Positions 45,637 through 58,885 of a stretch of DNA of 64,000 nt are shown in pieces. Positions within the stretch are counted from its first letter, which is position 1. Each line of letters begins with the position of its first letter. Location: sequence record PP216084. One strand, 5' to 3'. The DNA comes from Escherichia phage vB_EcoS_HZ_ZJUN2. Made by a program: the position numbers and the translations under genes. Below the pieces are notes generated by a model. That model saw nothing but the letters and a program-made list of their open reading frames with translations. It had not been told where the DNA came from and did no database searches.

Positions 45637-46338
45637 ATGAAAGTAAAACCATTTGGTATGCTAGATATTGAATCTCTAGGAACTCCAGGAGATTGTGGTA
45701 CTACTCATATCGTAATGCCTTCTTTCGCTTTTGTGGCTATGCATGGGATTGATAAAGACCCTGACTTAGTATTTGCTACTTTGGATGTGCAGGATCAGCT
45801 TAATTCTGGTGCCAAAGTTACAGCATCTACTCTAGCATTCTGGATGGATCAAGCTAAAAATAGCCCGTCTGCTATTCACATTATGGAAGCTATGAAGGAA
45901 CGTAATCCAAAACTGATTGCCTTCCAAAATGGTAAACATCATTGCACTAATAAATTAGGCTCAAACTATGCTGCCTTCTCTATGGCTCAAAATATTATGG
46001 AGTTGGCTCTAGGCGAAAATGCTTTGTATTATGGCAATGGCCCAGAGTTTGATATGACTATCTACTCTGCAAACACGTTCCATGCTGGAACCAATGAAGA
46101 GGTAGTTCCGTGGAAATTCTGGAATTTAGGCAATGTTCGATCTCTTCGTAATCTCTGGATGCAAGCTGGTTATAGTTACAAAGATCTAGAGGCTGAAGGT
46201 ATTAGCTGGGCAAAAGCTAAAATGGAGAAGATGGACACCATTCGTTATGGGATCTATCCGGTTAAGCACGACCCAGCATTCGATGCCCTAGTTGAGGGCT
46301 ATTGTGTTGCAGCTATGATCGAAAAAATGAAAATTTGA
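45637..46338 (+). CDS. putative DEDDh-family 3'-5' exonuclease (DexA-like)
   Basis: 233 aa; N-terminal LDIESLG (Exo I D-x-E) and C-terminal HDPAFDA (Exo III H…D) patterns. Confidence 0.5.
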   Translation: MKVKPFGMLDIESLGTPGDCGTTHIVMPSFAFVAMHGIDKDPDLVFATLDVQDQLNSGAKVTASTLAFWMDQAKNSPSAIHIMEAMKERNPKLIAFQNGKHHCTNKLGSNYAAFSMAQNIMELALGENALYYGNGPEFDMTIYSANTFHAGTNEEVVPWKFWNLGNVRSLRNLWMQAGYSYKDLEAEGISWAKAKMEKMDTIRYGIYPVKHDPAFDALVEGYCVAAMIEKMKI

Positions 46339-47667: not shown

Positions 47668-47696
47668 TTGCTAATCTACTAAATTATATGTATAAT
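47668..47696 (+). promoter_or_regulatory. T5-type promoter
   Basis: TTGCTA - 17 bp - TATAAT followed by ATATTTTTAAATTGATGAAAC. Confidence 0.65.
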
Positions 47697-47726: not shown

Positions 47727-48550
47727 ATGGGTAAATTACAAAAACAAATACTACCATATATAGATTATATTCGAGAAATTATAGAGTATAATCCTTATAC
47801 CGGTAAATTATTTTATAAGCCTAATAAATACAAGAATAAAACTTGGCACACCCTATATGCTGGGAGAGAGAGATATGTAGTAAGAACTCTGATGGGTATA
47901 TCAGAGTTAGTTTGCTCTTAGATAACAAACCCACAATTATTTATGGACACCGAATAGCGTGGTTGCTACATTATGGTGAAGAGCCGCCTCATATGATCGA
48001 CCATATAAATACCATACCGTGGGATAACAGAATTATTAATTTAAGAGAGACAAATTTTAAGTTAAATAGAATTAATACTAATAAAACCATAGGTGTAGAA
48101 CTCCTCCCAGAGGGTTTTGTATATAGCATTACATTAGATGGAAAGTTCTTCGTATCTCCTGGCTTCACCACTTTCGAACAAGCTAAAGGGGAAAGAGAAA
48201 AACTAGTAAATGGCTTATGTAACGCAGAAATTGGGAAGCAGACCAATATCCTAATAGACGATGTTAGAAATCTACCTGAAATGTCTATTATTTGTCGTAC
48301 AGTTGTATGTGCGCTAGAATTATCAGACGCGTTTAGTTTCACAGGCTCATACCTATTTATGGACTCAGATCTAGGAGATCCAGAGGTACAAGGAAAAGAT
48401 TTATTAGATCATATACTATTTTTAGGTCAAAGACCTTTAAAAGTGGTTTTAGTAACATCTAACCCCGTTGACGCAGAGTACATGAGAGGTACTCTTACAT
48501 CTTATGGATACAGAGAAAATCCCAATAGATTAGAATATGATCTATTTTAA
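47727..48550 (+). pseudogene. HNH homing endonuclease gene split by a -1 frameshift at a (GA)n tract
   Basis: N-terminal part in frame 0 (47727-47921) and HNH-containing part (…DGYIRVSLLL…YGHRIAWLLHYGEEPPHMIDHINTIPWDNRIINLRE) in the -1 frame (47843-48550); overlap contains GGGAGAGAGAGA (47862-47873). Confidence 0.55.
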
Positions 48551-48562
48551 GGAGTAAAAAGA

Positions 48563-49012
48563 ATGAAGGCAGCTTTGCTTTTAGTAGCTGCCCTTACCGT
48601 CAGCTTTAGTAGTCAGGCATCGCACGATGCAAAAGAAATAGATTGCATTGCTAAAAATATCTATTTCGAAAGTCGTGGTGAGGGCATAAAGGGAATGACG
48701 GCGATTGCACATGTTACTAAAAACCGTGTAAACTCCGGTAAATTCCCAGATTCCTACTGTAAAGTAGTATATCAGTCTAACCAGTTCTCTTGGGTATCCA
48801 AGAGACCAAAAGTTGATAAAACCGATGAGGCTTGGAAAACCGCCAAGAATTTAGCTAGAGTGATATACTACGTTGATTTACCACAAGATCCTACACATGG
48901 GGCTTTATACTTCCATAGCGGTAAAGATAAACCTTACTGGACAAAGAAATTTAAGAAAACAACTAAGATTAAGGGGCATACATTCTATAAACCTGTTGTC
49001 ACTAAAACTTAA
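48563..49012 (+). CDS. secreted SleB-like cell-wall hydrolase (Hydrolase_2-type)
   Basis: Signal peptide MKAALLLVAALTVSFSSQA; NIYFESRGEGIKGMTAIAHVTKNR…YQSNQFSW. Confidence 0.6.
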   Translation: MKAALLLVAALTVSFSSQASHDAKEIDCIAKNIYFESRGEGIKGMTAIAHVTKNRVNSGKFPDSYCKVVYQSNQFSWVSKRPKVDKTDEAWKTAKNLARVIYYVDLPQDPTHGALYFHSGKDKPYWTKKFKKTTKIKGHTFYKPVVTKT

Positions 49013-49020
49013 AAATTTAC

Positions 49021-49049
49021 TTGCTTAAATACTTAAATTTCCGTATAAT
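49021..49049 (+). promoter_or_regulatory. T5-type promoter
   Basis: TTGCTT - 17 bp - TATAAT followed by ACTTCCATAAATTAATGAGAGG. Confidence 0.65.
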
Positions 49050-49080
49050 ACTTCCATAAATTAATGAGAGGAAGCGAAAT

Positions 49081-49251
49081 ATGAAATCAGTTGTAATTAT
49101 TGGTGTTAACACTCGCGGTATTCGTACTACGAAAACTGTTAAAACTTCTAACGTTGCTGAAATCACTATGAACCCTAAAAAGTTTGATTTCGCCAAAGTC
49201 TCAGCAGTTATGACAGAACAATCTTTTAACCAAGCATTAGGAATGAAGTAA
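49081..49251 (+). CDS. small hypothetical protein
   Basis: 56-aa ORF (below the 60-aa track cut-off) with GAGAGGAAG RBS; stop overlaps the next start. Confidence 0.45.
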   Translation: MKSVVIIGVNTRGIRTTKTVKTSNVAEITMNPKKFDFAKVSAVMTEQSFNQALGMK

Positions 49252-49694
49252 TGGAAGAGAATATTTTAGATGTTTTGCGTAGAGCTTTGCAGGATTCTAA
49301 GTTTAATGGTTCTGATAAAGAAGTCGCTAAAAGCTATCAGACCATAATCGGGGATCTTCAGCGTATTGATAAAGATTTCATCACTTCTGAACAATTTGTG
49401 TCTTATCTCAAAGCTCAACTAAAAAGCATTAACCAGATGAAAGCTAAACTTCATGGTCAAGATCTCGATAGTTATAGCTTACAGTCTGCTCAGTATGAGT
49501 ATATTCTAAATAAATGGTTGCAGGAGTATCTGCCTCCTCAGTTATCTGATACTGAGATTCGTAAATACTTTGCAGAATTAGTTAAGCTAAACCCTGGAAT
49601 TACAAAGGGTATGCTGATGAAAGCGATTAAGGAAGAATTTCCTGGGCGTTATGATGGTGGTACTGCTGCTCAGATTGCTGGCGAATTTAATTAA
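49251..49694 (+). CDS. hypothetical protein, GatB/YqeY-domain-like
   Basis: 147 aa; C-terminal …FPGRYDGGTAAQIAGEF resembles YqeY-type domain ends (weak). Confidence 0.45.
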   Translation: MEENILDVLRRALQDSKFNGSDKEVAKSYQTIIGDLQRIDKDFITSEQFVSYLKAQLKSINQMKAKLHGQDLDSYSLQSAQYEYILNKWLQEYLPPQLSDTEIRKYFAELVKLNPGITKGMLMKAIKEEFPGRYDGGTAAQIAGEFN

Positions 49695-49702
49695 AAATTT
49701 AT

Positions 49703-49731
49703 TTGCTAAATGCCTTTAAATTCTGTATAAT
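49703..49731 (+). promoter_or_regulatory. T5-type promoter driving an ORF-free ~0.8-kb region
   Basis: TTGCTA - 17 bp - TATAAT followed by ATATTCATAAATTAGGGAAC. Confidence 0.65.
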
Positions 49732-49954
49732 ATATTCATAAATTAGGGAACAGCGAGCCGATTACGCTGAATGCAGAATCCCAACCGGAGCGCATTGAAT
49801 AGAGTCGGTGGGTTAGTTGTAAAACTAGTACACAGGGGGCGGCAATCCCGGTTAGTGGCTAGAACGTGTAAAATGAGGCGTCTGAAACCTCTCCCCTAAA
49901 CTCTTCTCTAATTTATAAATAGTGGGGTGTGGAAATCACTTATGTAGTAACACT

Positions 49955-50026
49955 GCCGATCTAGTATAAACGGTATTATCAAGCCGTAACTGGTGGAAGA
50001 TGTAGGTTCGAATCCTACGATCGGTA
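49955..50026 (+). other. tRNA-like element with aberrant anticodon arm (possible pseudo-tRNA)
   Basis: 7-bp acceptor pairing GCCGATC/GATCGGT and perfect T-arm GTAGG-TTCGAAT-CCTAC, but no 5-bp anticodon stem with U33 and no encoded CCA. Confidence 0.3.
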
Positions 50027-50527
50027 AGAACTGGATAACTGGTGCTTTTAACGTAAAAGCTTCCGAGGTTAGTTGCGCACTGCCTAAACCACGCGGTAGT
50101 TGGTTCCAGACTAACCAACCAGTCTGCTGAATAGTTTTATTACGATTTAACTATGTCCAGGCTAAAGAAGAACTTTAGAAGGTATTCTAGGTAGTGAAGT
50201 TTTTCCTCCATATCGGAGTAGTTTTTCAAGCTACCAACAAAGTGGGAAATGCTGACATGAGAGATGTCACTAATGGTGCACAATAGCACAGGTAATTCGC
50301 GATAACTCCTGTTGAGTAGCAGCAAAAGGCGGGAAGTCATGACCCCAAGCCTAACCGAGTCCTCAATATACCGCAGGACATAACCACTAAGTCACCCTGA
50401 CTTAAACTGGAAAATAATAGACGTTACTGTATTTTGTCTTGAAATACTTAATGAGTGAGACTTATGACTCTCCCGGTATCGTCTGTATTTTTAAGAGTTT
50501 TTACGAGAGTTCTTAAAAATACTTAAA

Positions 50528-50602
50528 CGGGGTGTAGTCTAAGGGAGAGGCAGGAGTCTTCTAAATTCCTTTATGCAGGTTCGAATCCTGTCACCTCGGC
50601 CA
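50528..50602 (+). tRNA. tRNA-Arg (anticodon TCT)
   Basis: Hand-folded cloverleaf: acceptor CGGGGTG/CACCTCG, anticodon loop CTTCTAA, T-loop TTCGAAT, encoded CCA. Confidence 0.65.
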
Positions 50603-50636
50603 ATTTTATTAACTGTAACTAAAACAAAGGAAATAT

Positions 50637-51584
50637 ATGTTTGCTACTAAAAACACTAAAGAACTGACTTATGAGCAAAAATTGATGCGTAATATCAAAC
50701 GTTGGGGTATTGGTGTTGCAGTTGGTTTGGTAGGTTTAGTTCTGGCCCTTAACTCCTATACTGTGGTTCAAGACGGTACTGTTAAAACCCAGACTTTCCT
50801 GGGTAAAGTTGACCCTAGCCCAGTATTACCAGGCTTTCATATTGTAAATCCTTTTGCTTCTTTCGATACTTTTAGTACTAAAGATATTGCTGTAAAATTA
50901 GATAAACTTCAGGTTCCTAGCCAGGATAAGTTTAAATCCACTGTTGACCTGACTGTTATGTTGCAGTTTGATGGTTCTAAGGCACCGATCAACCGTATTA
51001 ATGCAGGTACTCAGGATCAGGCGTTAGACAAATATGTAACTGAAAAATTACTGTCTACCATCCGTGAGTTTGGTAAGTCTGTACCTAAAGCACAAGATTT
51101 GTTTGATGCTAAAATTCAAGCACAATTACAAACTGCAATTCAACAGGAAGTTGAAGAGTATGCACGCCCTTATGGTTACACAGTTAAGCAAGTGTTCCTT
51201 CAGGATATCACATTACCACCGGTAATTATGGAACAGGTACAGAATACCAAAGTTCGTGAAGAACAAGTTAATGCTGCGAAAGCTGAATTGGCTCGTGTTG
51301 AACAAGAAGCACAGCAGAAGGTTAAACAAGCAGAAGCAGATCGTGAAGCTCGTAACAACCAAGCTATTGCAAACGAACGTGATGCAGATGCTAAACTGTA
51401 TGCAGCTAAGAAAGAAGCCGAAGCTAACGCCGCTCTGCAACGTACTATTACTCCTGAGATGATTCGCTGGAAACAACTAGAAGTTGAAATGACTCGTGCT
51501 CAGAAGTATCAAGGTGGTGTGCCGCAAACAGTAGTTGGCACTGGGTACGATGGCCGGATGATTATGGATATGCGTAACAAGTAA
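50637..51584 (+). CDS. SPFH/band-7 (prohibitin-like) membrane protein
   Basis: 315 aa; N-terminal TM helix WGIGVAVGLVGLVLAL; Ala/Glu/Gln-rich coiled coil. Confidence 0.6.
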   Translation: MFATKNTKELTYEQKLMRNIKRWGIGVAVGLVGLVLALNSYTVVQDGTVKTQTFLGKVDPSPVLPGFHIVNPFASFDTFSTKDIAVKLDKLQVPSQDKFKSTVDLTVMLQFDGSKAPINRINAGTQDQALDKYVTEKLLSTIREFGKSVPKAQDLFDAKIQAQLQTAIQQEVEEYARPYGYTVKQVFLQDITLPPVIMEQVQNTKVREEQVNAAKAELARVEQEAQQKVKQAEADREARNNQAIANERDADAKLYAAKKEAEANAALQRTITPEMIRWKQLEVEMTRAQKYQGGVPQTVVGTGYDGRMIMDMRNK

Positions 51585-51608
51585 TTCCCACACGTAATAT
51601 TCGAAGTA

Positions 51609-51648
51609 AGCCCTGTGTTCCCTGGAGAGCGCAGGGCTTTTCTGTTTT
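51609..51648 (+). terminator. intrinsic terminator
   Basis: Stem AAGCCCTG/CAGGGCTT followed by TTTTCTGTTTT. Confidence 0.7.
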
Positions 51649-51810
51649 AAGGTAGAGGATAAGTGTGTCTCTTTGGTCACTCAGCTATGACAAATACTTT
51701 ACACTATATCACATTGAAAATCAAGTGGGGATAACAATTTTGGGGTCTATCCACTTACCTGCTACCATTAAGCATCCTGTTATTTTCCTCTAAAAAGTTA
51801 AAAAATTCAA

Positions 51811-51839
51811 TTGCTTGAATGCTAAATTCTCTGTATAAT
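51811..51839 (+). promoter_or_regulatory. T5-type promoter
   Basis: TTGCTT - 17 bp - TATAAT followed by ATATTTATAAATTTGAGAGAGG. Confidence 0.65.
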
Positions 51840-51869
51840 ATATTTATAAATTTGAGAGAGGAATCTAGT

Positions 51870-52388
51870 ATGACTGTTGATGAACTAACAGAACATCTCT
51901 TATCTAGAGGGTTTGATACAGATAAGTATCATTGCTGGTTAAGCCAGGAAGGATGGCTAACAGTCCCGTTGTATGACTTCTCTGGGATGTTGAGAGGCTA
52001 TCAAACTTATAATCCTTCTGCTCCAAAAGGTCATGGTAAGTGTCCCTTTGAAGCTAAATATTTTACTTATTCTACTACCCAGTGTGTATGGGGATTAGAA
52101 ACTCTCAATGGAGATGAAAAAGTAGTATTGATTGCTGAATCTGTATTTAAGGCAGTTGCGTTACATAACGCTGGTTATCCAGCCCTGGCAATGTTGGGTT
52201 CTTCCCCCGGAAAAGCATTATTAAAGCAATTGAAATTATTACCTTTTAAATTGGTAGCTGTAGGAGATAATGATCCTGCGGGTGAAAAATTTGCTAGAAA
52301 ATTAAACGGCTTTGTTTCTCCTGTAGATGTAGATGAGATGTCTACCGAAAACTTGAAAAATTTTCTTGCTATGAAGCTAAATTTCTAA
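51870..52388 (+). CDS. small Toprim-domain protein
   Basis: Start at the ATG behind GAGAGAGGAATC; VVLIAESVFKAVAL…VAVGDNDPAGEK Toprim acidic motifs. Confidence 0.55.
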   Translation: MTVDELTEHLLSRGFDTDKYHCWLSQEGWLTVPLYDFSGMLRGYQTYNPSAPKGHGKCPFEAKYFTYSTTQCVWGLETLNGDEKVVLIAESVFKAVALHNAGYPALAMLGSSPGKALLKQLKLLPFKLVAVGDNDPAGEKFARKLNGFVSPVDVDEMSTENLKNFLAMKLNF

Positions 52389-52394
52389 TATAAT
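52366..52394 (+). promoter_or_regulatory. T5-type promoter overlapping the 3' end of the Toprim gene
   Basis: TTGCTA - 17 bp - TATAAT followed by ATATTTATAAATTCGGAAG. Confidence 0.6.
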
Positions 52395-52408
52395 ATATTT
52401 ATAAATTC

Positions 52409-52497
52409 GGAAGAATAGCATAACGGTATTGCAGCAGATTGCTAATCTGTCGGTTTGAAATATAGCCTTGTGGGTTCGATTCCCACTTCTTCCGCCA
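52409..52497 (+). tRNA. tRNA-Ser (anticodon GCT), long variable arm
   Basis: Acceptor GGAAGAA/TTCTTCC, anticodon loop TTGCTAA, 19-nt variable arm, T-loop TTCGATT, discriminator G, CCA. Confidence 0.7.
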
Positions 52498-52503
52498 AAT
52501 TCT

Positions 52504-52581
52504 GGTTCTCAAGCTCATATGGTATGAGCACCCAGCTCATAACTGGAAGGTACGTAGGTTCGAATCCTCGGGGAGCCACCA
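52504..52581 (+). tRNA. tRNA-Met-like (anticodon CAT)
   Basis: Acceptor GGTTCTC/GGGAGCC, D-stem GCTC/GAGC, anticodon loop CTCATAA, CCA; T-stem has only 3 clean pairs. Confidence 0.55.
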
Positions 52582-52604
52582 ACTTAATTAGAAAGTAGTA
52601 AACT

Positions 52605-53288
52605 ATGAGAACTGATATACTCGATAGAAAGGAAGAAATAACTCAGTGGATAGCTCAGGGAAAATCTAAAGCAGAGATAGCAAGAATGCTATCTTGTGCC
52701 TCGAATACTCTAGAAGCATATTTAGGAAAACTAGGGATAATAATTACTCCTACTAATAGGCAGCAGGATAATAAATATAAGTCTGCAACAGAGTATTTAT
52801 ATAATGGCAGTCCTATCTCTTCCTATAGACTAAAGAATAAAATTCTTAACGAGGGACTAAAACCACATAAATGTGAGGGTTGCGGACTAGAAAGCTGGTT
52901 AAATAAACCAATTCCCTTAGAACTCGAGCATAAAGATGGAGACCACTATAATAATGAGTGGGACAACTTAGCCCTCCTATGCCCAAATTGTCATGCACTA
53001 ACACCTACTCATGCAGGCAAAAATATTGGCAGGTATACAGAAAGGGTGGTAAATACATGTGCTATTTGTCATTGCGAAATTAGCCCAAAGGCAACGCACT
53101 GTAAATCATGTACCCCGAAAGAACTAACTATAAATCCAGATATTACTGCGGAGCAAATAGAGTATTGGGTATCTAAGTATTCCTGGGTTCGTGCCTCCAA
53201 AGAATTAGGATTATCTGACACGGGGTTAAGAAAAAGATATACGTCCTTAACAGGAAAAGATCCTAAAAGTATTAAGAAAAGTAGGTAG
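52605..53288 (+). CDS. HNH homing endonuclease with N-terminal HTH and shared C-terminal module
   Basis: CEGCG…ELEHKDGDHYNNEWDNLALLCPNCHA; C-terminal ELGLSDTGLRKRYTSL also present in 55476-56057. Confidence 0.7.
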   Translation: MRTDILDRKEEITQWIAQGKSKAEIARMLSCASNTLEAYLGKLGIIITPTNRQQDNKYKSATEYLYNGSPISSYRLKNKILNEGLKPHKCEGCGLESWLNKPIPLELEHKDGDHYNNEWDNLALLCPNCHALTPTHAGKNIGRYTERVVNTCAICHCEISPKATHCKSCTPKELTINPDITAEQIEYWVSKYSWVRASKELGLSDTGLRKRYTSLTGKDPKSIKKSR

Positions 53289-53317
53289 TATAATTAACAC
53301 CAAATTAAGGAAATAAG

Positions 53318-53488
53318 ATGTATAGACATCCACCTCCGCCAACACGTCGTTCTAGAGAAGTTATTCTCATGGAATTGACTAAAAACTTCAAGGCAACTCT
53401 TGAAGATAGAGATCTAGGCACGGATGAAGATATTGATTTTATTTGTAGACTATTAAAGATGAAACTGGAGAAACAACATGGCTAATCC
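53318..53488 (+). CDS. small hypothetical protein
   Basis: 56-aa ORF with AAGGAAATAAG RBS. Confidence 0.35.
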
Positions 53489-53684
53489 TGAAATTACCGC
53501 ACAACGTTTCATGCTTAAAGGCATGATTGCTGAGGCAGGTATAACTCAAGAGGTTGCAGATTTTCATAAGCAATTTCTTGACATTATAACTCTAGCTAAA
53601 GAGACTGGAGAAAAAGAACACGGTGCAGCAATTATGGCTATAACTCTTATTAGTCTAGACTTGGCAGAAGAATCTGGAGTTTAG
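53478..53684 (+). CDS. hypothetical protein
   Basis: 68-aa ORF. Confidence 0.45.
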   Translation: MANPEITAQRFMLKGMIAEAGITQEVADFHKQFLDIITLAKETGEKEHGAAIMAITLISLDLAEESGV

Positions 53685-53714
53685 CTCCTCCGAACAGAAT
53701 TTTTAAAAATGTAC

Positions 53715-53744
53715 TTGCCTTTTGCTTTAAATTTCTGGTATAAT
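53715..53744 (+). promoter_or_regulatory. T5-type promoter
   Basis: TTGCCT - 18 bp - TATAAT followed by AGTTATATAAATTGATGAAGG. Confidence 0.6.
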
Positions 53745-53774
53745 AGTTATATAAATTGATGAAGGAGTTAACGA

Positions 53775-54050
53775 ATGCAAAATCGTGTTATAGCAACTGG
53801 TATTGAAAGTGCAATCTGTAAATCCTGGGAAGGCTGGGAAGGTGAGATTGAATGGCTTTATTTCTACGATGTAGAACTTCTGCCGGAAATTAAAGCTAAA
53901 TGTGTTGAAGCTGGCATGGCTCCAGATGCAAAAGCTGATATTGATATTTCAATGTCTGAACTTAAAGGTCGTGTAATTACTGTTAGTGATGGGGGCGAAG
54001 AAGTTTTCGAACTTCCATTCTCCTTAACTGTCGCTCCTAAGTTCGACTAA
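53775..54050 (+). CDS. hypothetical protein
   Basis: 91-aa ORF with GAAGGAG RBS. Confidence 0.5.
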   Translation: MQNRVIATGIESAICKSWEGWEGEIEWLYFYDVELLPEIKAKCVEAGMAPDAKADIDISMSELKGRVITVSDGGEEVFELPFSLTVAPKFD

Positions 54051-54086
54051 CTAATACAGCACTGAGCAAGTTCTTTAAAATTTGAC

Positions 54087-54115
54087 TTGCTCAGTGCCTT
54101 AAAACTTGGTATAAT
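54087..54115 (+). promoter_or_regulatory. T5-type promoter whose -35 lies in the 3' arm of a 12-bp hairpin (54059-54097)
   Basis: TTGCTC - 17 bp - TATAAT; inverted repeat AGCACTGAGCAAG…CTTGCTCAGTGC. Confidence 0.55.
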
Positions 54116-54249
54116 AGTTATCTAATTTGGAAAGTTCTTTTTAAGGTAGTTCTTACTTTAGCAGAGTAAACTTTCGGCAGATGGCGGCAGCCACTTTACC
54201 GATATTCCATAGTCAGTGCCGCAAACACTGGCTACCTTAAAGAGAATTT

Positions 54250-54337
54250 GGGCGTTTATTCCGTAAGTGGTAGCGGAGGGGAATGTAAATCCCTGGTCAT
54301 TGCGACTCGAGTGGTTCGACTCCATTAACGCCCACCA
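54250..54337 (+). tRNA. tRNA-Tyr (anticodon GTA), long variable arm
   Basis: Acceptor GGGCGTT/AACGCCC, anticodon stem GGGGA/TCCCT, loop ATGTAAA, CCA. Confidence 0.65.
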
Positions 54338-54345
54338 AATTTAAT

Positions 54346-54420
54346 GCACCTATCGTCTAATGGTTAGGACATCAGGATTTCAATCTGAGAATCGGAGTTC
54401 AATTCTCCGTGGGTGTACCA
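54346..54420 (+). tRNA. tRNA-Glu (anticodon TTC)
   Basis: Acceptor GCACCTA/TGGGTGT, anticodon loop ATTTCAA, T-arm CGGAG-TTCAATT-CTCCG, CCA. Confidence 0.65.
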
Positions 54421-54428
54421 ATTTCTGC

Positions 54429-54505
54429 ATTCCTAGAGTGTTACTGGACAGCATGTCGGTCTCCAAAACCGTACGGTCTAGGTTCGAGTCCTAGTAGGTT
54501 TGCCA
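54429..54505 (+). tRNA. tRNA-Trp (anticodon CCA), two U-U mismatches in the acceptor stem
   Basis: Anticodon loop CTCCAAA, T-arm CTAGG-TTCGAGT-CCTAG, CCA; acceptor ATTCCTA/TAGGTTT pairs at 5 of 7 positions. Confidence 0.5.
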
Positions 54506-54511
54506 AAATTT

Positions 54512-54586
54512 GCACCTTTAGCTGAGATGGATTAGCGCTTGCCTGAAGAGCTTGAAAGGTTGGATCGTTACCAACGGGGTGCACCA
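54512..54586 (+). tRNA. tRNA-Phe (anticodon GAA)
   Basis: Acceptor GCACCTT/GGGGTGC, D-stem GCTG/TAGC, anticodon loop CTGAAGA, CCA; anticodon stem has two U-U pairs, T-loop ATCGTTA is atypical. Confidence 0.55.
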
Positions 54587-54603
54587 AATTGAAGGAGCTG
54601 CTG

Positions 54604-54876
54604 ATGCATCCTGAAAACTTCTTTATTTACTGCGCGGATAAGTCGCTGAAACGTAGAATTAACAAAGTCTATCATTATCGTGCTAGTCAACAGCCTTATG
54701 TATACGCTTTTGACGGTGATCACATTCCACTAGAACAATTATCTTGTGATTACATGATATTGAAGAACTTTGACGAGACGAAGATCTCAAGCGTTTATAA
54801 TCGACAGAATCCATTAACGTGGAAATATAAGAAGAAAAAGAAAGGCATCAAATTCTTAAAAAATATAGTTGCTTAG
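54604..54876 (+). CDS. hypothetical protein
   Basis: ATG at 54604 behind GAAGGAG, directly after tRNA-Phe. Confidence 0.45.
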   Translation: MHPENFFIYCADKSLKRRINKVYHYRASQQPYVYAFDGDHIPLEQLSCDYMILKNFDETKISSVYNRQNPLTWKYKKKKKGIKFLKNIVA

Positions 54877-54897
54877 TTTCCAAAAGTTCTGTATAAT
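54869..54897 (+). promoter_or_regulatory. T5-type promoter
   Basis: TTGCTT - 17 bp - TATAAT followed by AATTACATAAATTGAACTGGAG. Confidence 0.6.
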
Positions 54898-54945
54898 AAT
54901 TACATAAATTGAACTGGAGAAGCAACATGATAGAACAAGATAAAT

Positions 54946-55021
54946 CGACCGTTGGCTGAATGGCTTAGGCGAAGGATTGCAAATCCTTTTTATGTGAGTT
55001 CAAATCTCATGCGGTCGTCCA
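54946..55021 (+). tRNA. tRNA-Cys (anticodon GCA)
   Basis: Acceptor CGACCGT/GCGGTCG, anticodon stem AAGGA/TCCTT, loop TTGCAAA, T-arm GTGAG-TTCAAAT-CTCAT, CCA. Confidence 0.65.
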
Positions 55022-55023
55022 AT

Positions 55024-55170
55024 TTGCTGAAAGAATTGTTAAATCAATTCAGGCACGCGTAGGAACACTGTCTCCGTAATTGAAAGATGAGGCACGGTTT
55101 GGAGAGGTATGCCGCTACACGCTACGGTGCTAACTCCGTCTAGGTGAAAATCCTAGTCAGCAATGTAAAT
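55024..55170 (+). other. ~147-nt tRNA-like/structured RNA candidate closed by an acceptor-like helix
   Basis: 5' TTGCTGA pairs perfectly with 3' TCAGCAA; internal hairpins GAATTG…CAATTC and CTAGG-TGAAAAT-CCTAG; no ORF. Confidence 0.3.
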
Positions 55171-55173
55171 TTA

Positions 55174-55259
55174 GGGTCGTTGGCTGAACGGTTTAAGCGC
55201 CGGACTGTTAATCCGTATCCGCAAGGATAAAGTAGGTTCAACTCCTACACGGCCCGCCA
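55174..55259 (+). tRNA. tRNA-Asn (anticodon GTT) with an unusually long variable arm
   Basis: Acceptor GGGTCGT/ACGGCCC, anticodon arm CGGA-CTGTTAA-TCCG, 15-nt variable stem-loop ATCC-GCAA-GGAT, T-arm GTAGG-TTCAACT-CCTAC, discriminator G, CCA. Confidence 0.6.
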
Positions 55260-55286
55260 AATTCACTAACAACTGAGGAAATAGAT

Positions 55287-55472
55287 ATGACAACTCGTGC
55301 AATTGCTCGACTAGAAGCTGATCGTGATAATATGATTAATAATATTAAGGTTCGTGGTAATATTATTAAGGCTCTGAAAGCTGAACTTCTTGAGGAACTT
55401 CAAGGTCAAGTAGAGCGTCGTGAAGCTCTAAAAGAGGTTGAGGAAGCTATCGAAAAACTCAAGGCTGAATAA
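55287..55472 (+). CDS. hypothetical coiled-coil protein
   Basis: 61-aa ORF with GAGGAAATAG RBS. Confidence 0.5.
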   Translation: MTTRAIARLEADRDNMINNIKVRGNIIKALKAELLEELQGQVERREALKEVEEAIEKLKAE

Positions 55473-55475
55473 ATT

Positions 55476-56057
55476 ATGCACGGAATATCCTTACCCATTC
55501 CAGGGTTTGAGGAGTACTTAGTAAGTTTGGATGGGTTAGTATTTAGTATCAAATCAAACAAAATACTAACCCCAATAACCAGTAATTACGGATACTTATC
55601 TATACGTCTCCATAAAAATGGTCAACAGAGAAATACCGGTGTACATAGGATTTTAGCATGTGCATTTAAGAAATTACCAAGTCTAGACTCTGAACTAGAA
55701 GTTGACCATATTAACACAGACATTACTTATTGGGGTCTTAATAACTTACAAGTGCTCACAAAAGAGCAGCATCTAGAAAAGACTTTAAAAGATAAAGGAT
55801 TTAGTAAACTAAACCATGATAATTGTTGTAAGGATTGTGGTAAAGCTATTTCTTTAAAAGCTGAAAAATGTCAGGAGTGCTCTTCACATAAACCAAAAGA
55901 TATCTCTATAACTAAAGAAATAATCGAGGTTACAGTAAGAGAGCTAGGCTGGTCAGGTGCAGGGAGAAAGTTAAGTTATTCAGATAATGGGTTGCGTAAA
56001 AGATACACTTCTTTAGGAGGCAATCCTAAAGAACTTAAAAAGTTAAAGGTACTATAG
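55476..56057 (+). CDS. HNH homing endonuclease
   Basis: …YGYLSIRL…HRILACAF…EVDHINTDITYWGLNNLQVLTKEQH; C-terminal ELGWSGAGRKLSYSDNGLRKRYTSL module. Confidence 0.7.
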   Translation: MHGISLPIPGFEEYLVSLDGLVFSIKSNKILTPITSNYGYLSIRLHKNGQQRNTGVHRILACAFKKLPSLDSELEVDHINTDITYWGLNNLQVLTKEQHLEKTLKDKGFSKLNHDNCCKDCGKAISLKAEKCQECSSHKPKDISITKEIIEVTVRELGWSGAGRKLSYSDNGLRKRYTSLGGNPKELKKLKVL

Positions 56058-56122
56058 TCTAACGGTTAGGATACTCCCCTGTCACGGGAGAGGTAGGGTT
56101 TCGATTACCCTTAGTACCGCCA
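56048..56122 (+). tRNA. tRNA-Asp (anticodon GTC)
   Basis: Acceptor GGTACTA/TAGTACC, anticodon stem CTCCC/GGGAG, loop CTGTCAC, T-arm AGGGT-TTCGATT-ACCCT, CCA; 5' end overlaps the last codons of the HNH gene. Confidence 0.7.
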
Positions 56123-56139
56123 AATAAGGTAGGTTAGCT

Positions 56140-56298
56140 ATGGAACGTAGGGAGTTTACTCCAGAAGAGATAGAGCAGATAAAAGAATCTGCTATGAAAA
56201 ATGCTAGAATATCTCTGTCACTGGAAGGTATCATTATTAGTGATGTAAACTTTGAAAAAATCAAAGCCATAGCTGATGAACTGGAAAAAGTAATTTAA
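56140..56298 (+). CDS. small hypothetical protein
   Basis: 52-aa ORF with AAGGTAGG RBS, between tRNA-Asp and tRNA-Lys. Confidence 0.4.
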   Translation: MERREFTPEEIEQIKESAMKNARISLSLEGIIISDVNFEKIKAIADELEKVI

Positions 56299-56299
56299 T

Positions 56300-56375
56300 A
56301 CATCCATAGCTCAATGGTTAGAGCTACCGCCTCTTAAGCGGAGGGTTCTAGGTTCAAGTCCTAGTGGGTGTACCA
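56300..56375 (+). tRNA. tRNA-Lys (anticodon CTT)
   Basis: Acceptor ACATCCA/TGGGTGT, D-stem GCTC/GAGC, anticodon loop CTCTTAA, T-arm CTAGG-TTCAAGT-CCTAG, CCA. Confidence 0.6.
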
Positions 56376-56401
56376 AATTAAACTAGCACGAGAAATATGC
56401 T

Positions 56402-56749
56402 ATGATTAATGCTAAAGAAGAATTGTTACTTGCCCTAAAGAATACTAATTCTGAAGTTAAGTGTATTAAGATAGAATTCGGTTATTATGGGGATAAAGAA
56501 GTTTGGGTATTACCCGTAGGTTATACAGAAAAAGATATTGAAGATTTTCTAAATAATCTAGACTTTAAATATGATTCTGGTTATGGTGGGCAATTGCTTT
56601 ATGGTAACGTGTGGTTTACTGATGGAACTTGGTTAGAACGCGGTGAATACGACGGTTCTGAATGGTGGGAATATAAGGCTACGCCAGCAATCCCAGAAGA
56701 ATGCCGAACAATTAATGGTGAAGTAGATCATACATTACTACTAAATTAA
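56402..56749 (+). CDS. hypothetical protein
   Basis: 115-aa ORF between tRNA-Lys and tRNA-Pro. Confidence 0.5.
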   Translation: MINAKEELLLALKNTNSEVKCIKIEFGYYGDKEVWVLPVGYTEKDIEDFLNNLDFKYDSGYGGQLLYGNVWFTDGTWLERGEYDGSEWWEYKATPAIPEECRTINGEVDHTLLLN

Positions 56750-56759
56750 TAAAAATTAA

Positions 56760-56836
56760 CAGTGCGTAGCTCAGCTTGGTAGAGCGTCTGCTTTGGGAGC
56801 AGAATGTCGCAGGTTCGAGTCCTGCCGCACTGACCA
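56760..56836 (+). tRNA. tRNA-Pro (anticodon TGG)
   Basis: Acceptor CAGTGCG/CGCACTG, D-stem GCTC/GAGC, anticodon stem TCTGC/GCAGA, loop TTTGGGA, CCA. Confidence 0.7.
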
Positions 56837-56936
56837 AACAATTGCGGGTGGGAGGCATAGAGTTCTTCTTAGTCTCATAAGCTAAGTAAGTCCAGGGCAG
56901 TACTGGAACCCGCTACCAATTTCAAGAAAAACTCAT

Positions 56937-56965
56937 TTGCTTAATGCTTAATTTCTTGTTATAAT
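56937..56965 (+). promoter_or_regulatory. T5-type promoter driving an ORF-free ~0.3-kb leader and the Ala/Leu tRNAs
   Basis: TTGCTT - 17 bp - TATAAT followed by ATTTATATAAATTGATGCG. Confidence 0.65.
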
Positions 56966-56971
56966 ATTTAT

Positions 56972-57297
56972 ATAAATTGATGCGAAAATAGCTGCCTAGA
57001 TACCAGGTGTATGACGTCTACACTAGCAGAGCTACCGAAAAAGAGATCCTCAGGATAAACGTCGTAGCAAAATTAGTCTGGTATCCATCAATTTAGTTCA
57101 CTAAGGTATTAGCTCGACCTAGGACTGGCTGCCAAAAAGCACGATCCCTACGACTTGGGAGAAGTTCTAGATTAGTCCACTAGATTCAGCGGCAACTGAA
57201 TAGTGTATTGGGTTTGCGAGATGACGCGGTTCCTTCCGCTCGAAGCGAAGGTGCTGTAGTTACGCCGAGCTAATAGCCTTAGTAAACTAAAGAATTT
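56972..57297 (+). ncRNA. candidate non-coding RNA / structured precursor leader
   Basis: ~325 nt between promoter and tRNA-Ala with no plus-strand ORF longer than 15 codons; local hairpins such as CCTTCCGC-TCGAA-GCGAAGG. Confidence 0.3.
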
Positions 57298-57371
57298 GGG
57301 GATATAGTTTAATGGTAGAACATCTGCTTTGCACGCAGAAGACGAGGGTTCAACTCCCTCTTTCTCCACCA
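57298..57371 (+). tRNA. tRNA-Ala (anticodon TGC) with G3-U70
   Basis: Acceptor GGGGATA/TTTCTCC with the G3-U70 wobble typical of alanine tRNAs; anticodon stem TCTGC/GCAGA, loop TTTGCAC, CCA. Confidence 0.65.
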
Positions 57372-57376
57372 AATTC

Positions 57377-57461
57377 GGGGCTATGCTGGAACTGGTAGAC
57401 AATACGGCCTTAGATTCCGTAGCTTAAATGCGTGGGAGTTCGAGTCTCCCTAGCCCCACCA
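57377..57461 (+). tRNA. tRNA-Leu (anticodon TAG), long variable arm
   Basis: Acceptor GGGGCTA/TAGCCCC, D-loop AACTGGTAGA, anticodon loop CTTAGAT, 13-nt variable arm, discriminator A, CCA. Confidence 0.65.
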
Positions 57462-57585
57462 AATTTGATGGTCAGAGTAAATTAAACCTACTATCTCGGT
57501 TGAGCTGTTTTAATGGGTTCGAATCCCAGCGAGGCGTAACTGCCTGGTGTGATAGAGGCATCATTCCACTAATATTGGAAAACTA

Positions 57586-57816
57586 ATGAAACGAGAATTA
57601 AAAAAATCTTATATAATTAAGATAAATAAGCTAAGAAGTAGGGCAAAAGGATGGCCACTTCGGATATTAATTGCGGATAACCATATTAGATACCATGCGG
57701 AACAACGTCATTATAAACAGTGGGAGTCATACTGCCGCTCAAAAGCAGGTCGTTTAGATGGATCTTATGAGTTTCTATTTGGTAAGAAGCCTACTAGAGT
57801 AGCTTTAGGTAATTAA
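57586..57816 (+). CDS. hypothetical basic protein
   Basis: 76-aa ORF. Confidence 0.45.
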   Translation: MKRELKKSYIIKINKLRSRAKGWPLRILIADNHIRYHAEQRHYKQWESYCRSKAGRLDGSYEFLFGKKPTRVALGN

Positions 57817-57821
57817 TACTT

Positions 57822-57912
57822 GGAAGAGCAAATCGAATTGGCGACGAAAACCGCTTGGAAAGTGGCTGACTGGTAAAACGGCTTGAGAGTTCAAATCTCT
57901 CCTCTTCCGCCA
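57822..57912 (+). tRNA. tRNA-Ser (anticodon GGA, tentative), long variable arm
   Basis: Perfect acceptor GGAAGAG/CTCTTCC, T-arm GAGAG-TTCAAAT-CTCTC, discriminator G, CCA; anticodon loop TTGGAAA closed by 4 pairs. Confidence 0.55.
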
Positions 57913-57919
57913 AACAAAT

Positions 57920-58009: not shown

Positions 58010-58025
58010 ACTTATAAGGTAATAT

Positions 58026-58208: not shown

Positions 58209-58215
58209 AAATTCT

Positions 58216-58872: not shown

Positions 58873-58885
58873 AGTAAAGAATTAT

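Follow-up and report, generated by a model that had tools for sequence, protein, structure and literature searches.

A SleB-like cell wall hydrolase gene and an SPFH/Band-7 membrane protein gene at the tRNA island of a T5-like Escherichia phage

Results

Genomic setting of the two genes

The analyzed window is a stretch of 64,000 nt from a Tequintavirus (T5-like phage), Escherichia phage vB_EcoS_HZ_ZJUN2 (PP216084). The region considered here contains two genes, encoding a SleB-like hydrolase and an SPFH/Band-7 membrane protein, together with the surrounding regulatory and RNA elements (Table 1). At the DNA level the region matches 463 phage records, with 95.5% identity to HildyBeyeler, and both genes are kept in hundreds of the matching T5-like records. 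Because of this number of matching records and the dN/dS values of 0.10-0.16 obtained for both genes in comparisons with T5, HildyBeyeler, and Kenya-K38, the two ORFs are real genes under purifying selection and not chance ORFs.

The first-pass annotation of this DNA had placed both genes among the early and tRNA genes, away from the usual lysis cassette, and this placement was confirmed with one refinement. The SPFH gene lies inside the tRNA island, directly downstream of tRNA-Arg, whereas the hydrolase gene strictly forms the upstream edge of the island, ~0.9 kb ahead of the first tRNA-like element (positions 49955-50026; 39 bits with the Rfam tRNA model). The tRNA-Ser gene beyond the SPFH gene is followed by 18 further tRNAs. 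The T5 holin, endolysin, T5.039, and spanins have no tblastn match within the window, and no holin- or spanin-like membrane gene adjoins the hydrolase gene there. In the T5 record, the holin-endolysin-spanin genes occupy 19.9-23.2 kb and T5.083, the hydrolase orthologue, lies at 42.3 kb, that is, ~22 kb apart.

Table 1. Features of the hydrolase and SPFH loci (coordinates within the 64,000-nt window).
Feature	Coordinates	Strand	Evidence and remarks
Promoter-like site TTGCTA-17-TATAAT	47668..47696	+	Consensus scan, 10/12 matches; upstream of the hydrolase-containing unit
HNH endonuclease module fused ahead of cREC_REC domain (T5.084 homologue)	47727..48550	+	Same predicted unit as the hydrolase, upstream; 2-bp frameshift splits the gene
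Ribosome-binding site AAGGAG	48549..48554	+	Sequence read; 8 nt ahead of the hydrolase ATG
Predicted exported SleB/CwlJ-fold cell wall hydrolase, T5.083 orthologue, 149 aa	48563..49012	+	Pfam, identity, AF2, Foldseek
Predicted cleavable Sec signal peptide, aa 1-19, cleavage after SQA	48563..48619	+	Hydropathy and -3/-1 rule only
Glu36 codon, predicted catalytic residue (E preceding SRGE in YFESRGE)	48668..48670	+	Alignment with SleB structures
Promoter-like site TTGCTT-17-TATAAT	49021..49049	+	Sequence read and T5 annotation; directly past the hydrolase stop codon; position of T5 promoter P-D/E 33
Promoter-like site TTGCTA-17-TATAAT	49703..49731	+	Consensus scan and T5 record; position of T5 promoter P16-17; predicted start of the unit ending with the SPFH gene
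Conserved non-coding stretch homologous to T5 stable RNA 'rnaX'	49740..50527	+	Annotated as rnaX in the T5 record; holds the tRNA-like element
tRNA-Arg (TCT)	50528-50602	+	ARAGORN; Rfam 49.3 bits; directly upstream of the SPFH gene
Single-pass SPFH/Band-7 membrane protein, T5.080 orthologue, 315 aa	50637..51584	+	Pfam, phrog_200, identity, AF2/Foldseek
Predicted transmembrane helix, aa 23-43	50703..50765	+	Hydropathy 1.9 over 19 residues; sole hydrophobic segment; AF2 helix 12-39
Strong intrinsic-terminator-like hairpin, 13-bp stem then T run	51608..51639	+	24 nt past the SPFH stop codon
tRNA-Ser	52409-52497		

The neighbors of T5.083 are the same in this phage, with a cREC_REC gene upstream and DUF7616 and YqeY-like genes downstream. 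The hydrolase gene differs from T5.083 by point differences only, whereas the upstream gene has an inserted HNH endonuclease module and a frameshift. It matches Pfam HNH_3 (1.8e-11) and cREC_REC (7.6e-13), while T5.084 by itself matches cREC_REC at 3.4e-15, and in the DNA alignment it carries an extra GA relative to HildyBeyeler.

The promoter-like sites upstream of both genes are consensus- and annotation-based, and the region has no more such sites in total than shuffled sequence does, although they fall where the T5 record annotates promoters. The DNA flanking the first site is near-identical to T5 upstream of T5.084, where a promoter is annotated. The site directly past the hydrolase gene was missed by the consensus scan because its -35 hexamer matches only 3/6 bases. 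The segment preceding the SPFH gene (49695-50636) is 98.8% identical to HildyBeyeler and 93-99% identical to T5 over the aligned parts. At the place equivalent to the hairpin past the SPFH gene, the T5 record annotates an 'efficient bidirectional rho-independent terminator'. The hydrolase and SPFH genes are thus predicted to belong to separate promoter/terminator units.

SleB-like hydrolase

Orthologues of the hydrolase include T5.083/T5p081 ('cell wall hydrolase homolog', or 'endolysin' in RefSeq), with 96% amino acid identity and equal length, and AKFV33 ORF81. The protein contains a full Pfam Hydrolase_2 domain (PF07486; E=2.5e-25, 89.5 bits against a cutoff of 27, profile positions 1-100 of 100). 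Its N-terminus, MKAALLLVAALTVSFSSQA followed by SH after the predicted cleavage site, contains a single Lys and a hydrophobic core of 11 residues, with small residues at positions -3 and -1, and an N-terminal hydrophobic stretch is present in 38 of the 38 complete relatives aligned. The mature protein would be ~15 kDa and very basic (pI 9.74), and 10 of its last 30 residues are Lys or Arg.

The AF2 model (pLDDT 91.5) has the catalytic-domain fold of Bacillus SleB/CwlJ. The best Foldseek matches are 4FET and 4F55, with target-normalised TM scores of 0.71-0.80, rmsd of 2.4-2.9 A (2.4 A on 4FET), and ~30% identity. The domain, the hydrophobic N-terminus, and the fold all agree with the first-pass annotation, which had described a signal-peptide-bearing SleB-like hydrolase. 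The annotation had also suggested an alignment check of catalytic residues, which puts the Glu of the Y-x-E-S-R-G-E motif (YGESRGE in 4F55 and 4FET) at E36, invariant in 39 relatives. E36, C28, C66, and H139 are kept in all complete relatives.

Several characteristics distinguish the phage hydrolase from the Bacillus enzymes. It is without the N-terminal peptidoglycan-binding domain of SleB and falls short of the SleB equivalog cutoff (51 against 236.5 bits); its Cys28/Cys66 pair has no counterpart in Bacillus; and the phage host makes no spores. Its clade also includes chromosomal genes of non-sporulating Proteobacteria (35-45% identity), located beside housekeeping genes, and therefore this clade is not tied to spores. 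Bacillus SleB reportedly requires muramic-delta-lactam, and to our knowledge E. coli murein is without it, so that activity of the hydrolase on the host wall is not guaranteed.

SPFH/Band-7 protein

The SPFH protein is 94% identical to T5.080 and matches Pfam Band_7 (PF01145; E=4.8e-17, 63 bits against a cutoff of 23.6) and phrog_200 (4.6e-85). The AF2 model, a monomer of moderate quality (pLDDT 75.7, pTM 0.44), contains the transmembrane helix, an alpha/beta SPFH domain, a 76-residue helix, and then one more helix. In Foldseek it matches erlin1/2, PHB1/2, HflK/C, stomatin, and QmcA with E from 1e-15 to 1e-10 over ~260-310 aligned columns, and two of the matched entries are, by their titles, HflK/C-FtsH protease complexes. 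Together with the Band_7 match and the one hydrophobic segment, these matches bear out the earlier description of a prohibitin-like membrane protein.

The cellular SPFH proteins (E. coli HflK/HflC and QmcA, prohibitin 1/2, erlin 1/2, stomatin) have the same transmembrane helix, SPFH domain, long coiled-coil helix, and C-terminal cap, whereas sequence identity to the phage protein is 15-20%. No NCBIfam HflK or HflC model matches it, and HflK/C were not among the matches in a sequence search of solved structures with E up to 1. The phage has a single gene instead of a K/C or 1/2 pair, and neither a conserved neighbor nor an NfeD partner was found in the window or at the KP15 and 44RR2.8t loci. 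A cage is proposed for the phage protein by analogy. PADLOC gave no match.

The N-terminal tail is basic, with six K/R in 22 residues against two K/R past the transmembrane helix, and from this charge distribution the bulk of the protein is predicted to face the periplasm. HflK/C, prohibitins, and erlins have the same N-in/C-out orientation as that predicted for the phage protein. QmcA, the closest solved relative by sequence, faces the cytoplasm, which is the opposite of the topology predicted here.

Distribution among phages

The phrog_200 proteins T5.080, RB43 ORF139c, 44RR2.8t ORF098c, Aeh1 ORF064c, and KP15_111 fall in the same clade and have identical architecture, although the lineages differ in the N-terminal tail and transmembrane segment. 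This phage SPFH/Band 7 family was noted in T4-like genomes in 2006 (PMC1524935). Identity to the protein analyzed here is 83% in T4-like Klebsiella phages, 63% in Aeromonas phage 44RR2.8t, and 76% in phage 7-11, in which the gene is split into two CDSs; across the 120 cluster representatives listed it ranges from 56 to 96%. Mean column identity among homologues from several phage families is 61%, C-terminal tail included.

The gene is found in the tRNA island of T5-like phages and in the tk-rI region of the T4-like phages examined, namely T4-like Klebsiella phages and Aeromonas 44RR2.8t; in Klebsiella phage KP15 it lies two genes downstream of the rI antiholin gene. Both locations, the tk-rI region as well as the tRNA island, are variable and gather unrelated accessory genes.

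The hydrolase has a different distribution. The listed Hydrolase_2 matches include rV5-, phi92-, and PAK_P-like phages, none of which is among the SPFH matches listed. In more distant relatives the hydrolase gene is again found among early nucleotide-metabolism genes, and thus its placement is conserved. Because the SPFH gene is present in T4-like phages and Hydrolase_2 genes in phages outside the listed SPFH matches, the two genes appear to have spread independently. They are also separable in T5 itself: T5.080 is absent across the deletion junction of the record of T5st0, a viable heat-stable deletion mutant grown as a routine strain, and T5.083 is retained.

Discussion

Both features are already annotated in T5 records and do not constitute a new system. 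AKFV33 ORF81 was named "cell wall hydrolase SleB" in 2012 (PMC3326045), and a 2024 paper remarked on a second "endolysin" far from the holin (PMC11180984). In the literature searched, we found no experimental work on T5.083 or T5.080; the papers found are limited to annotation of the genes. We favor, with moderate confidence, the interpretation that the two are accessory early genes of T5-like phages, conserved and independent of each other, which do not form a two-part system and which encode a periplasmic auxiliary murein hydrolase and an inner-membrane SPFH cage.

One alternative, which we consider less likely, is that the SleB-like protein, exported through its signal peptide, works as a true endolysin without a holin and sets or backs up lysis in T5-like phages, instead of being a minor auxiliary. 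Its homologues are annotated as endolysins in phi92, PM1, 7-11, and RefSeq T5-like records, it matches the phrog_938 'endolysin' family at 4e-30, and its placement among early nucleotide-metabolism genes persists in the more distant relatives. A precedent is provided by the SleB-like lysins of Vequintavirinae and related phages (CB7_83, CR3_087), likewise small Hydrolase_2 proteins of phages with Gram-negative hosts: CB7_83 of Pectobacterium phage CB7 carries a signal peptide at its N-terminus, its expression in E. coli was toxic, and its homologue CR3_087 in Cronobacter phage CR3 is implicated in lysis (PMC7344957). However, identity to these lysins is only ~40% over the core, and the Vequintavirinae protein was proposed as the lysis enzyme, with an overlapping candidate holin gene for CB7_83, whereas T5 has a separate, complete holin, endolysin, and spanin cassette ~22 kb away and the hydrolase gene has no holin- or spanin-like membrane gene beside it. 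Moreover, unregulated early export should give premature lysis.

For the SPFH protein, we think it unlikely that it acts as a regulator as opposed to a passive scaffold. In this reading, its periplasmic cage would resemble that of HflK/C and capture FtsH of the host or a different client in the inner membrane (a holin, an antiholin, or respiratory proteins). Proteolysis, energisation of the membrane, or the timing of lysis would thereby be tuned, or abortive-infection systems that target the membrane would be blunted. The fold matches to erlin, prohibitin, and HflK/C, including the two complexes with FtsH, the predicted orientation shared with HflK/C, and the very high conservation across unrelated phage lineages are consistent with such a role, as is the location near the rI antiholin gene in KP15 and in the tk-rI region of 44RR2.8t. 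On the other hand, this region and the tRNA island collect unrelated accessory genes, and the gene has no conserved neighbor or NfeD partner. Neither the NCBIfam models nor the sequence search of solved structures (E up to 1) gave a match to HflK or HflC, PADLOC gave none, and the gene is dispensable in T5st0.

The first-pass annotation implied a pairing of the two proteins in envelope remodelling for DNA injection or in superinfection exclusion. Both products are predicted at the inner membrane or in the periplasm and both genes are conserved throughout T5-like phages, but we judge a joint envelope role improbable. The T5 early region enters the cell only in the second step of DNA transfer; since both genes lie in this region, their products cannot serve the phage's own DNA entry. 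A role in superinfection exclusion is unsupported as well, as T5 excludes superinfecting phages through the lipoprotein Llp, a blocker of its receptor FhuA, and a wall-degrading enzyme would be expected to help, not hinder, incoming phages. Superinfection exclusion by T5 is the subject of an earlier study (PMC9586334). The separate predicted transcription units, the independent phylogenetic distributions, and the absence of the SPFH gene from the record of the viable T5st0 speak against the pairing itself. Finally, it is hardly credible that either gene, or both, is a functionless passenger (a decaying moron) whose annotation reflects ancestry only: T5st0 grows without T5.080, the SPFH gene of phage 7-11 is split, and the hydrolase match in Klebsiella phage vB_Kpn_3 consists of two pieces covering residues 14-120 only, but dN/dS is low for both genes, the catalytic Glu, Cys pair, and signal peptide are intact in all complete relatives, the SPFH protein is conserved across the listed cluster representatives, and hundreds of T5-like records retain both genes.

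Under the favored interpretation of two independent accessory genes, the T5.083 orthologue would be synthesized in the cytoplasm, probably early in infection, and exported by Sec to the periplasm with cleavage of its short signal peptide. There the single SleB/CwlJ-fold domain, probably stabilised by a Cys28-Cys66 disulfide, would most likely cleave glycan strands of host murein via Glu36, as a SleB-like lytic transglycosylase. Because the hydrolase has no need of a holin, it would assist the canonical cassette of holin, L-Ala-D-Glu peptidase, and spanin as an auxiliary enzyme, thinning or nicking the sacculus ahead of lysis and while lysis proceeds. An exported muralytic enzyme made early, however, ought to harm the cell over a latent period of tens of minutes, and hence it must be weak, regulated, or substrate-restricted.

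The T5.080 orthologue would be an inner-membrane protein in N-in/C-out orientation. By analogy with other full-length SPFH proteins, it would be expected to oligomerise via the long helix and the conserved C-terminal tail to form a periplasmic ring or cage, which would organise or shield a membrane patch or a client membrane protein during infection. Such a protein would raise phage fitness in nature while being dispensable on laboratory E. coli.

Genomic setting and transcription units

The SleB-like hydrolase and the SPFH protein, which the first-pass annotation had linked as candidate envelope functions, are best read as two unrelated accessory functions of a T5-like phage. Both ORFs lie where they had been placed, and their Hydrolase_2 and Band_7 domains score well above the gathering thresholds. 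Region 48000-52500 is matched by 463 phage records, the top one being Escherichia phage HildyBeyeler (Bas33, Tequintavirus), which is 95.5% identical across the full query, and the gene order of the window is common to HildyBeyeler, Salmonella phage Kenya-K38, and T5. ARAGORN identified 21 tRNA genes in the window, spanning 49954-60123. Taken together, the matches, the gene order, and the tRNAs indicate that the window spans the early/tRNA region of a virulent siphovirus related to T5.

The location of the two genes agrees only in part with their initial description as embedded in the tRNA island. The SPFH gene is indeed located between tRNA-Arg and tRNA-Ser, whereas the first tRNA-like element lies ~0.9 kb downstream of the hydrolase gene, whose neighbors are cREC_REC, DUF7616, and YqeY-like genes. 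The description of the hydrolase as distant from the usual lysis cassette is borne out: the T5 holin, endolysin (lys), T5.039, and two spanins have no homolog within the 64-kb window, and in the T5 genome the lysis genes occupy 19.9-23.2 kb, ~22 kb from the hydrolase ortholog T5.083 at 42.3 kb.

Three promoter-like sites in the region match the positions of promoters annotated in T5, and a terminator-like hairpin with a 13-bp stem follows the SPFH stop codon, where the T5 record has an efficient terminator. A promoter consensus scan of the region showed no enrichment relative to shuffled sequence, and thus the transcription units are predictions from position and T5 annotation. On these grounds the hydrolase and SPFH genes are predicted to belong to different early transcription units. 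Since their distributions among phages also differ, we rejected the possibility that they form one operon or system. An Rfam scan of the region yielded tRNAs only, and the PADLOC-DB defense-system models matched neither protein.

Coordinates of the hydrolase and SPFH genes and of neighboring features in the window
Feature	Coordinates	Strand	Remarks
Rv2179c-like 3'-5' exoribonuclease	45637-46338		RNA-related domain near tRNA-island start
Promoter-like site	47668-47696		T5 type (TTGCTA/T-17-TATAAT); ahead of HNH/cREC gene and hydrolase
HNH_3/cREC_REC gene	47727-48550	+	Upstream of hydrolase
cREC_REC	47843-48550		RNA-related domain near tRNA-island start
Hydrolase ORF	48563-49012	+	149 aa; preceded by AAGGAG ribosome-binding site
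Promoter-like site	49021-49049		T5 type (TTGCTA/T-17-TATAAT); directly 3' of hydrolase
YqeY/GatB-like	49251-49694		RNA-related domain near tRNA-island start
Promoter-like site	49703-49731		T5 type (TTGCTA/T-17-TATAAT); ahead of rnaX-like RNA, tRNA-Arg, SPFH gene
rnaX-like stretch	49740-50527	+	Non-coding; between YqeY-like gene and tRNA-Arg
tRNA-like element	49955-50026		Within rnaX-like stretch; Rfam tRNA, 39 bits; unusual ACT anticodon (ARAGORN)
tRNA-Arg	50528-50602		Upstream flank of SPFH gene
SPFH ORF	50637-51584	+	315 aa
Gap	51585-51818		234 nt between SPFH and Toprim genes
Small Toprim-only protein	51819-52388		RNA-related domain near tRNA-island start
tRNA-Ser	52409-52497		Downstream flank of SPFH gene
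tRNA	52504-52578	+	Rfam, 38.2 bits; no ARAGORN call; position of T5 tRNA-Ile2(CAU) and HildyBeyeler tRNA-Met
HNH homing endonuclease	52605-53288	+	N-terminal LuxR/GerE-type HTH; between tRNA genes; position of T5 hegA (T5.075)

Neighboring genes and RNAs

In the gene upstream of the hydrolase, an HNH_3 endonuclease module is fused in frame, after codon 2, to cREC_REC ("cyclic-phosphate processing receiver"), which in T5 is the stand-alone 105-aa protein T5.084; the HNH insertion is called an "intein" in the HildyBeyeler annotation. In the window, a 2-bp GA insertion in the (GA)n run near 47890-47900 splits this ORF into 47727-47921 and 47843-48550, and could be a sequencing error, a pseudogene mutation, or a slippery site. 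The non-coding stretch homologous to the T5 stable RNA "rnaX" is 98.8% identical to HildyBeyeler, exceeding the conservation of the flanking protein genes.

Two or three opposite-strand genes (T5.077-T5.079) separate the SPFH terminator from the Toprim gene in T5 (L004 in our collection, 7065-8672) and in Kenya-K38 (L002, 6456-7880). Only the short gap is present in the window and in HildyBeyeler, pointing to a variable insertion site. The homing endonuclease at the hegA position is absent from the corresponding HildyBeyeler site.

The four RNA-related genes near the start of the island bear public labels such as "metallopeptidase/exonuclease," "tRNA amidotransferase," and "DNA primase." Their domains suggest a theme of tRNA/RNA processing or repair, which may merit more attention than the two envelope genes.

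Sequence and fold of the hydrolase

The hydrolase is 96% identical to T5.083, and the Pfam domain Hydrolase_2 (PF07486) is matched over the complete profile (positions 1-100 of 100, E=2.5e-25, 89.5 bits against a gathering cutoff of 27). The signal peptide noted in the first pass is supported by the composition of the N-terminus, MKAALLLVAALTVSFSSQA with SHD following the cleavage point: it has one Lys in the n-region, a hydrophobic core of 11 residues, and small residues at -3/-1, and a heuristic, rule-based reading places the signal-peptidase I site at SQA/S. By these rules a typical cleavable Sec signal is predicted. A hydrophobic N-terminus, together with C28, occurs in all 38 complete relatives. 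A SAR-type membrane anchor is unlikely, as the core comprises only ~11 residues and the SQA/S site follows it. The mature protein would have a mass of 15.0 kDa and a pI of 9.74, with 10 Lys/Arg among the C-terminal 30 residues.

A sequence search of the structure database with the hydrolase returned only SleB catalytic domains, from Bacillus cereus (4F55, E=2.6e-8) and B. anthracis (4FET). The catalytic residue, the absence of which would have spoken against a hydrolase, is in place. In the Hydrolase_2/SleB-CwlJ family the catalytic Glu lies in the motif Y-x-E-[SA]-R-G-E, and the segment Y-F-E-S-R-G-E of the phage protein, whose Glu is E36, aligns with Y-G-E-S-R-G-E in both SleB structures. 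By chain position E36 corresponds to Glu151 of B. anthracis SleB, the catalytic residue. In an alignment of 39 relatives, extending down to 30% identity, E36, C66, H139, Y34, R55, and Q74 are invariant. Bacillus SleB enzymes have Leu and Gly where the hydrolase has its two Cys. From the co-conservation of Cys28 and Cys66 we infer a periplasmic disulfide specific to the exported clade.

The AlphaFold (AF2) model of the hydrolase is of high confidence (pLDDT 91.5, pTM 0.83). Foldseek against the PDB retrieved SleB catalytic domains only (target-normalized TM 0.71-0.80, rmsd 2.4-2.9 A) and no other fold at E < 1; the values for 4FET_B were E 2.5e-5, target-normalized TM 0.80, and rmsd 2.4 A.

Relatives of the hydrolase

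Despite this similarity, the phage protein differs from SleB proper. Against the NCBIfam equivalog model TIGR02869 it scores 51.3 bits with a cutoff of 236.5, matching the C-terminal model positions 77-201 only, and it has no counterpart of the N-terminal peptidoglycan-binding domain of SleB. The far sub-threshold score and the absence of this domain rule out SleB orthology. Moreover, SleB proper is a spore germination enzyme, whereas the hosts of the hydrolase are enterobacteria, which do not form spores. Bacillus SleB is reported to require muramic-delta-lactam.

The contigs that carry the nearest relatives outside T5-like phages (40-48% identity) are phage-like, and there too the gene is surrounded by early genes of nucleotide metabolism (Thy1, UvdE, RNase H, metallophosphatase), with no lysis cassette visible. 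No conserved partner gene was found, the upstream cREC_REC gene not being kept in more distant relatives. Relatives at 35-45% identity are chromosomal in non-sporulating Proteobacteria (Oceanibacterium, Skermanella, Ca. Thiodiazotropha, Burkholderiales) and carry the same motif, C-[LIM]-A-x-N-[IV]-Y-[FH]-E; in the two chromosomal contexts examined they adjoin housekeeping genes, e.g., cobT and a carbonic anhydrase gene. Since the clade is common to non-sporulating Proteobacteria, the "spore cortex" label is historical and the "spore" name misleading.

A rival reading is that the hydrolase is a true signal-peptide endolysin. Hydrolase_2 proteins occur widely in phages that infect Gram-negative bacteria, with 1278 phage records matching the hydrolase query. 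The SleB-like protein of Pectobacterium phage CB7 has a signal peptide and is toxic in E. coli on expression, and the homologous protein of Cronobacter phage CR3 has been linked to lysis (PMC7344957). On the other hand, the T5-like hydrolase gene lies outside a holin/spanin cassette, where the gene of a canonical holin-dependent endolysin is found. The "endolysin" ORF annotated in Salmonella phage 7-11 with a holin nearby, considered as a case of Hydrolase_2 acting as sole endolysin, has no signal peptide, and no TM neighbors were seen; it speaks neither for nor against such a role. The labels "endolysin" and "spore cortex-lytic enzyme" attached to T5.083 overstate current knowledge.

Sequence, topology, and fold of the SPFH protein

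The SPFH protein is 94% identical to T5.080 and contains a Band_7 domain (PF01145) at residues 52-225 (E=4.8e-17, 63 bits against a gathering cutoff of 23.6). It has a single hydrophobic segment at ~23-43, with 6 Lys/Arg in the 22-residue tail before it and only 2 after it. By the positive-inside rule, this bias predicts a cytoplasmic N-terminus and a periplasmic bulk. The protein contains no cysteine among its 315 residues and hence no lipobox Cys, so the "lipoprotein" label given to T5.080 by phrog_200 and RefSeq is unfounded.

In the monomer model (AF2, pLDDT 75.7), a TM helix precedes an alpha/beta SPFH domain (41-192), which is followed by a 76-residue helix (195-270), then by a shorter helix, and finally by a tail that is poorly modeled. 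All elements of the SPFH superfamily architecture are thus present, from the membrane anchor through the SPFH domain and the long coiled-coil helix to the C-terminal segment. The C-terminal tail, K-Y-x-G-G-V-P-x-T-V-V-G..., is of low confidence in the model and ranks with the most conserved stretches of the family. Foldseek matches include erlin1/2, prohibitin 1/2, HflK/C, stomatin, QmcA, and flotillin (E 1e-15 to 1e-7), span ~260-310 aligned columns, and, for HflK/C, contain entries titled as FtsH complexes. Erlin, prohibitin, and HflK/C, the top group, have a non-cytoplasmic orientation, as predicted for the phage protein.

That the SPFH protein regulates FtsH or lysis timing is another rival reading, and the FtsH-complex entries are in line with it. 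However, HflK/HflC are encoded by paired K and C genes, whereas the phage has one SPFH gene and no further SPFH ORF in its vicinity, and HflK/HflC are absent among its solved-structure sequence matches at E up to 1. In sequence, the protein of known structure closest to it is QmcA (E=3e-6), and no NCBIfam model matched at E <= 0.01. In SPFH-NfeD operons such as QmcA-YbbJ the partner is an NfeD protein; the phage gene is instead flanked by tRNA-Arg and a terminator, and neither an NfeD-type nor any other conserved adjacent partner was found in the T5-, T4-, and 7-11-like phages examined.

Spread and maintenance of the SPFH protein

HMMER, run exhaustively against 1.84 billion representatives, returned only 940 proteins at E <= 0.001 and 168 at <= 1e-10. 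Among ten representatives looked up, those with at least 32% identity were on contigs of at most ~110 kb, and one with 28% was on a 6.5-Mb bacterial contig. From these ten look-ups, made by contig and without gene context, the clade looks mainly phage-borne. Among phages the protein shows striking conservation and mobility, having been exchanged between unrelated virulent lineages. Amino acid identity to the window protein is 80-83% in T4-like Klebsiella, Enterobacter, and Cronobacter phages (KP15 and others), 76% in Salmonella phage 7-11, 63% in Aeromonas phage 44RR2.8t, and 35-44% in Vibrio phages. A table published in 2006 already records the Band 7 match for 44RR2.8t, Aeh1, and RB43 (PMC1524935). 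The 7-11 homolog (L007, 7865-8783) is annotated as two CDSs and recovered as two tblastn pieces, indicating a frameshifted or mis-sequenced gene.

In KP15 and 44RR2.8t the SPFH gene lies within the variable tk-rI region. In KP15 (L005, 2649-4331) it is the second gene after the rI antiholin, the intervening one encoding a DUF5856 protein, and in 44RR2.8t it adjoins the genes for a DUF1190 protein and for a small protein whose N-methylation (N_methyl) motif resembles that of type IV pilins. These neighbors possibly hint at an envelope or lysis-timing context.

The two genes might also be decaying passengers. The T5 st(0) record is 113,238 bp long compared with 121,750 bp for the wild type, and its deletion junction, joining a truncated YqeY-like gene to T5.068, removes T5.080 and retains T5.083. 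T5 st(0), a heat-stable deletion mutant, is propagated as a standard phage in the laboratory; thus, the SPFH protein is dispensable for lytic growth on laboratory E. coli. For the hydrolase, no evidence of this kind was found. Nevertheless, dN/dS values of 0.10-0.16 for the hydrolase and SPFH genes, relative to T5, HildyBeyeler, and Kenya-K38, indicate that both are maintained by selection.

Functional interpretation

The weakest reading is the role in injection or superinfection exclusion proposed at first. The T5 early region enters the cell only with second-step DNA transfer, and both genes belong to it; T5 excludes superinfecting phages by means of the Llp lipoprotein. The SPFH gene is dispensable, and the two genes are neither co-transcribed in the predicted units nor co-distributed. 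T5 superinfection exclusion is also treated in a published structural study (PMC9586334).

Under the preferred reading of two unrelated functions, the hydrolase would be exported via Sec, folded with a disulfide, and act on murein as a lytic-transglycosylase-type enzyme independently of a holin, complementing the canonical endolysin cassette. This reading rests on the fold, the catalytic residue, and the export signal, from which we infer activity, substrate, and timing. An exported wall-degrading enzyme made early would have to be tolerated by the cell until lysis.

The SPFH protein would probably assemble on the inner membrane into a ring or cage that faces the periplasm. Candidate clients are host FtsH, a holin or antiholin, or a membrane-targeting abortive-infection effector, and their capture might control lysis timing or membrane integrity in infection. 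We regard it as improbable that the protein is a specific client-caging regulator. The combined proposal, in which phrog_200 proteins, exchanged among T5-, T4-, and 7-11-like phages and under strong purifying selection, build a homo-oligomeric HflK/C- or prohibitin-type periplasmic cage for a specific inner-membrane client and, separately, the hydrolase serves as a holin-independent pre-lysis thinner of the sacculus, likewise seems rather unlikely.

Both genes were already known, being annotated with these domains in T5 records. As to the hydrolase, ORF81 of AKFV33 was named "cell wall hydrolase SleB" in 2012 (PMC3326045), and a 2024 paper on T5-like Salmonella phages described a second "endolysin" that has a SleB domain and lies far from the holin, and urged experiments (PMC11180984). 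Searches for SleB in phage, SPFH in phage, and PF07486 endolysins returned annotation-level mentions only, and the literature searched contained no functional study of T5.083/T5p081 or T5.080/T5p078.

In summary, the phage SPFH protein, conserved and horizontally exchanged, is the one thread that could become interesting, and its phenotype would be cheap to seek because T5 st(0) already lacks the gene. Should it prove to cage FtsH or lysis proteins, it would represent a novel phage strategy for manipulating the host membrane.
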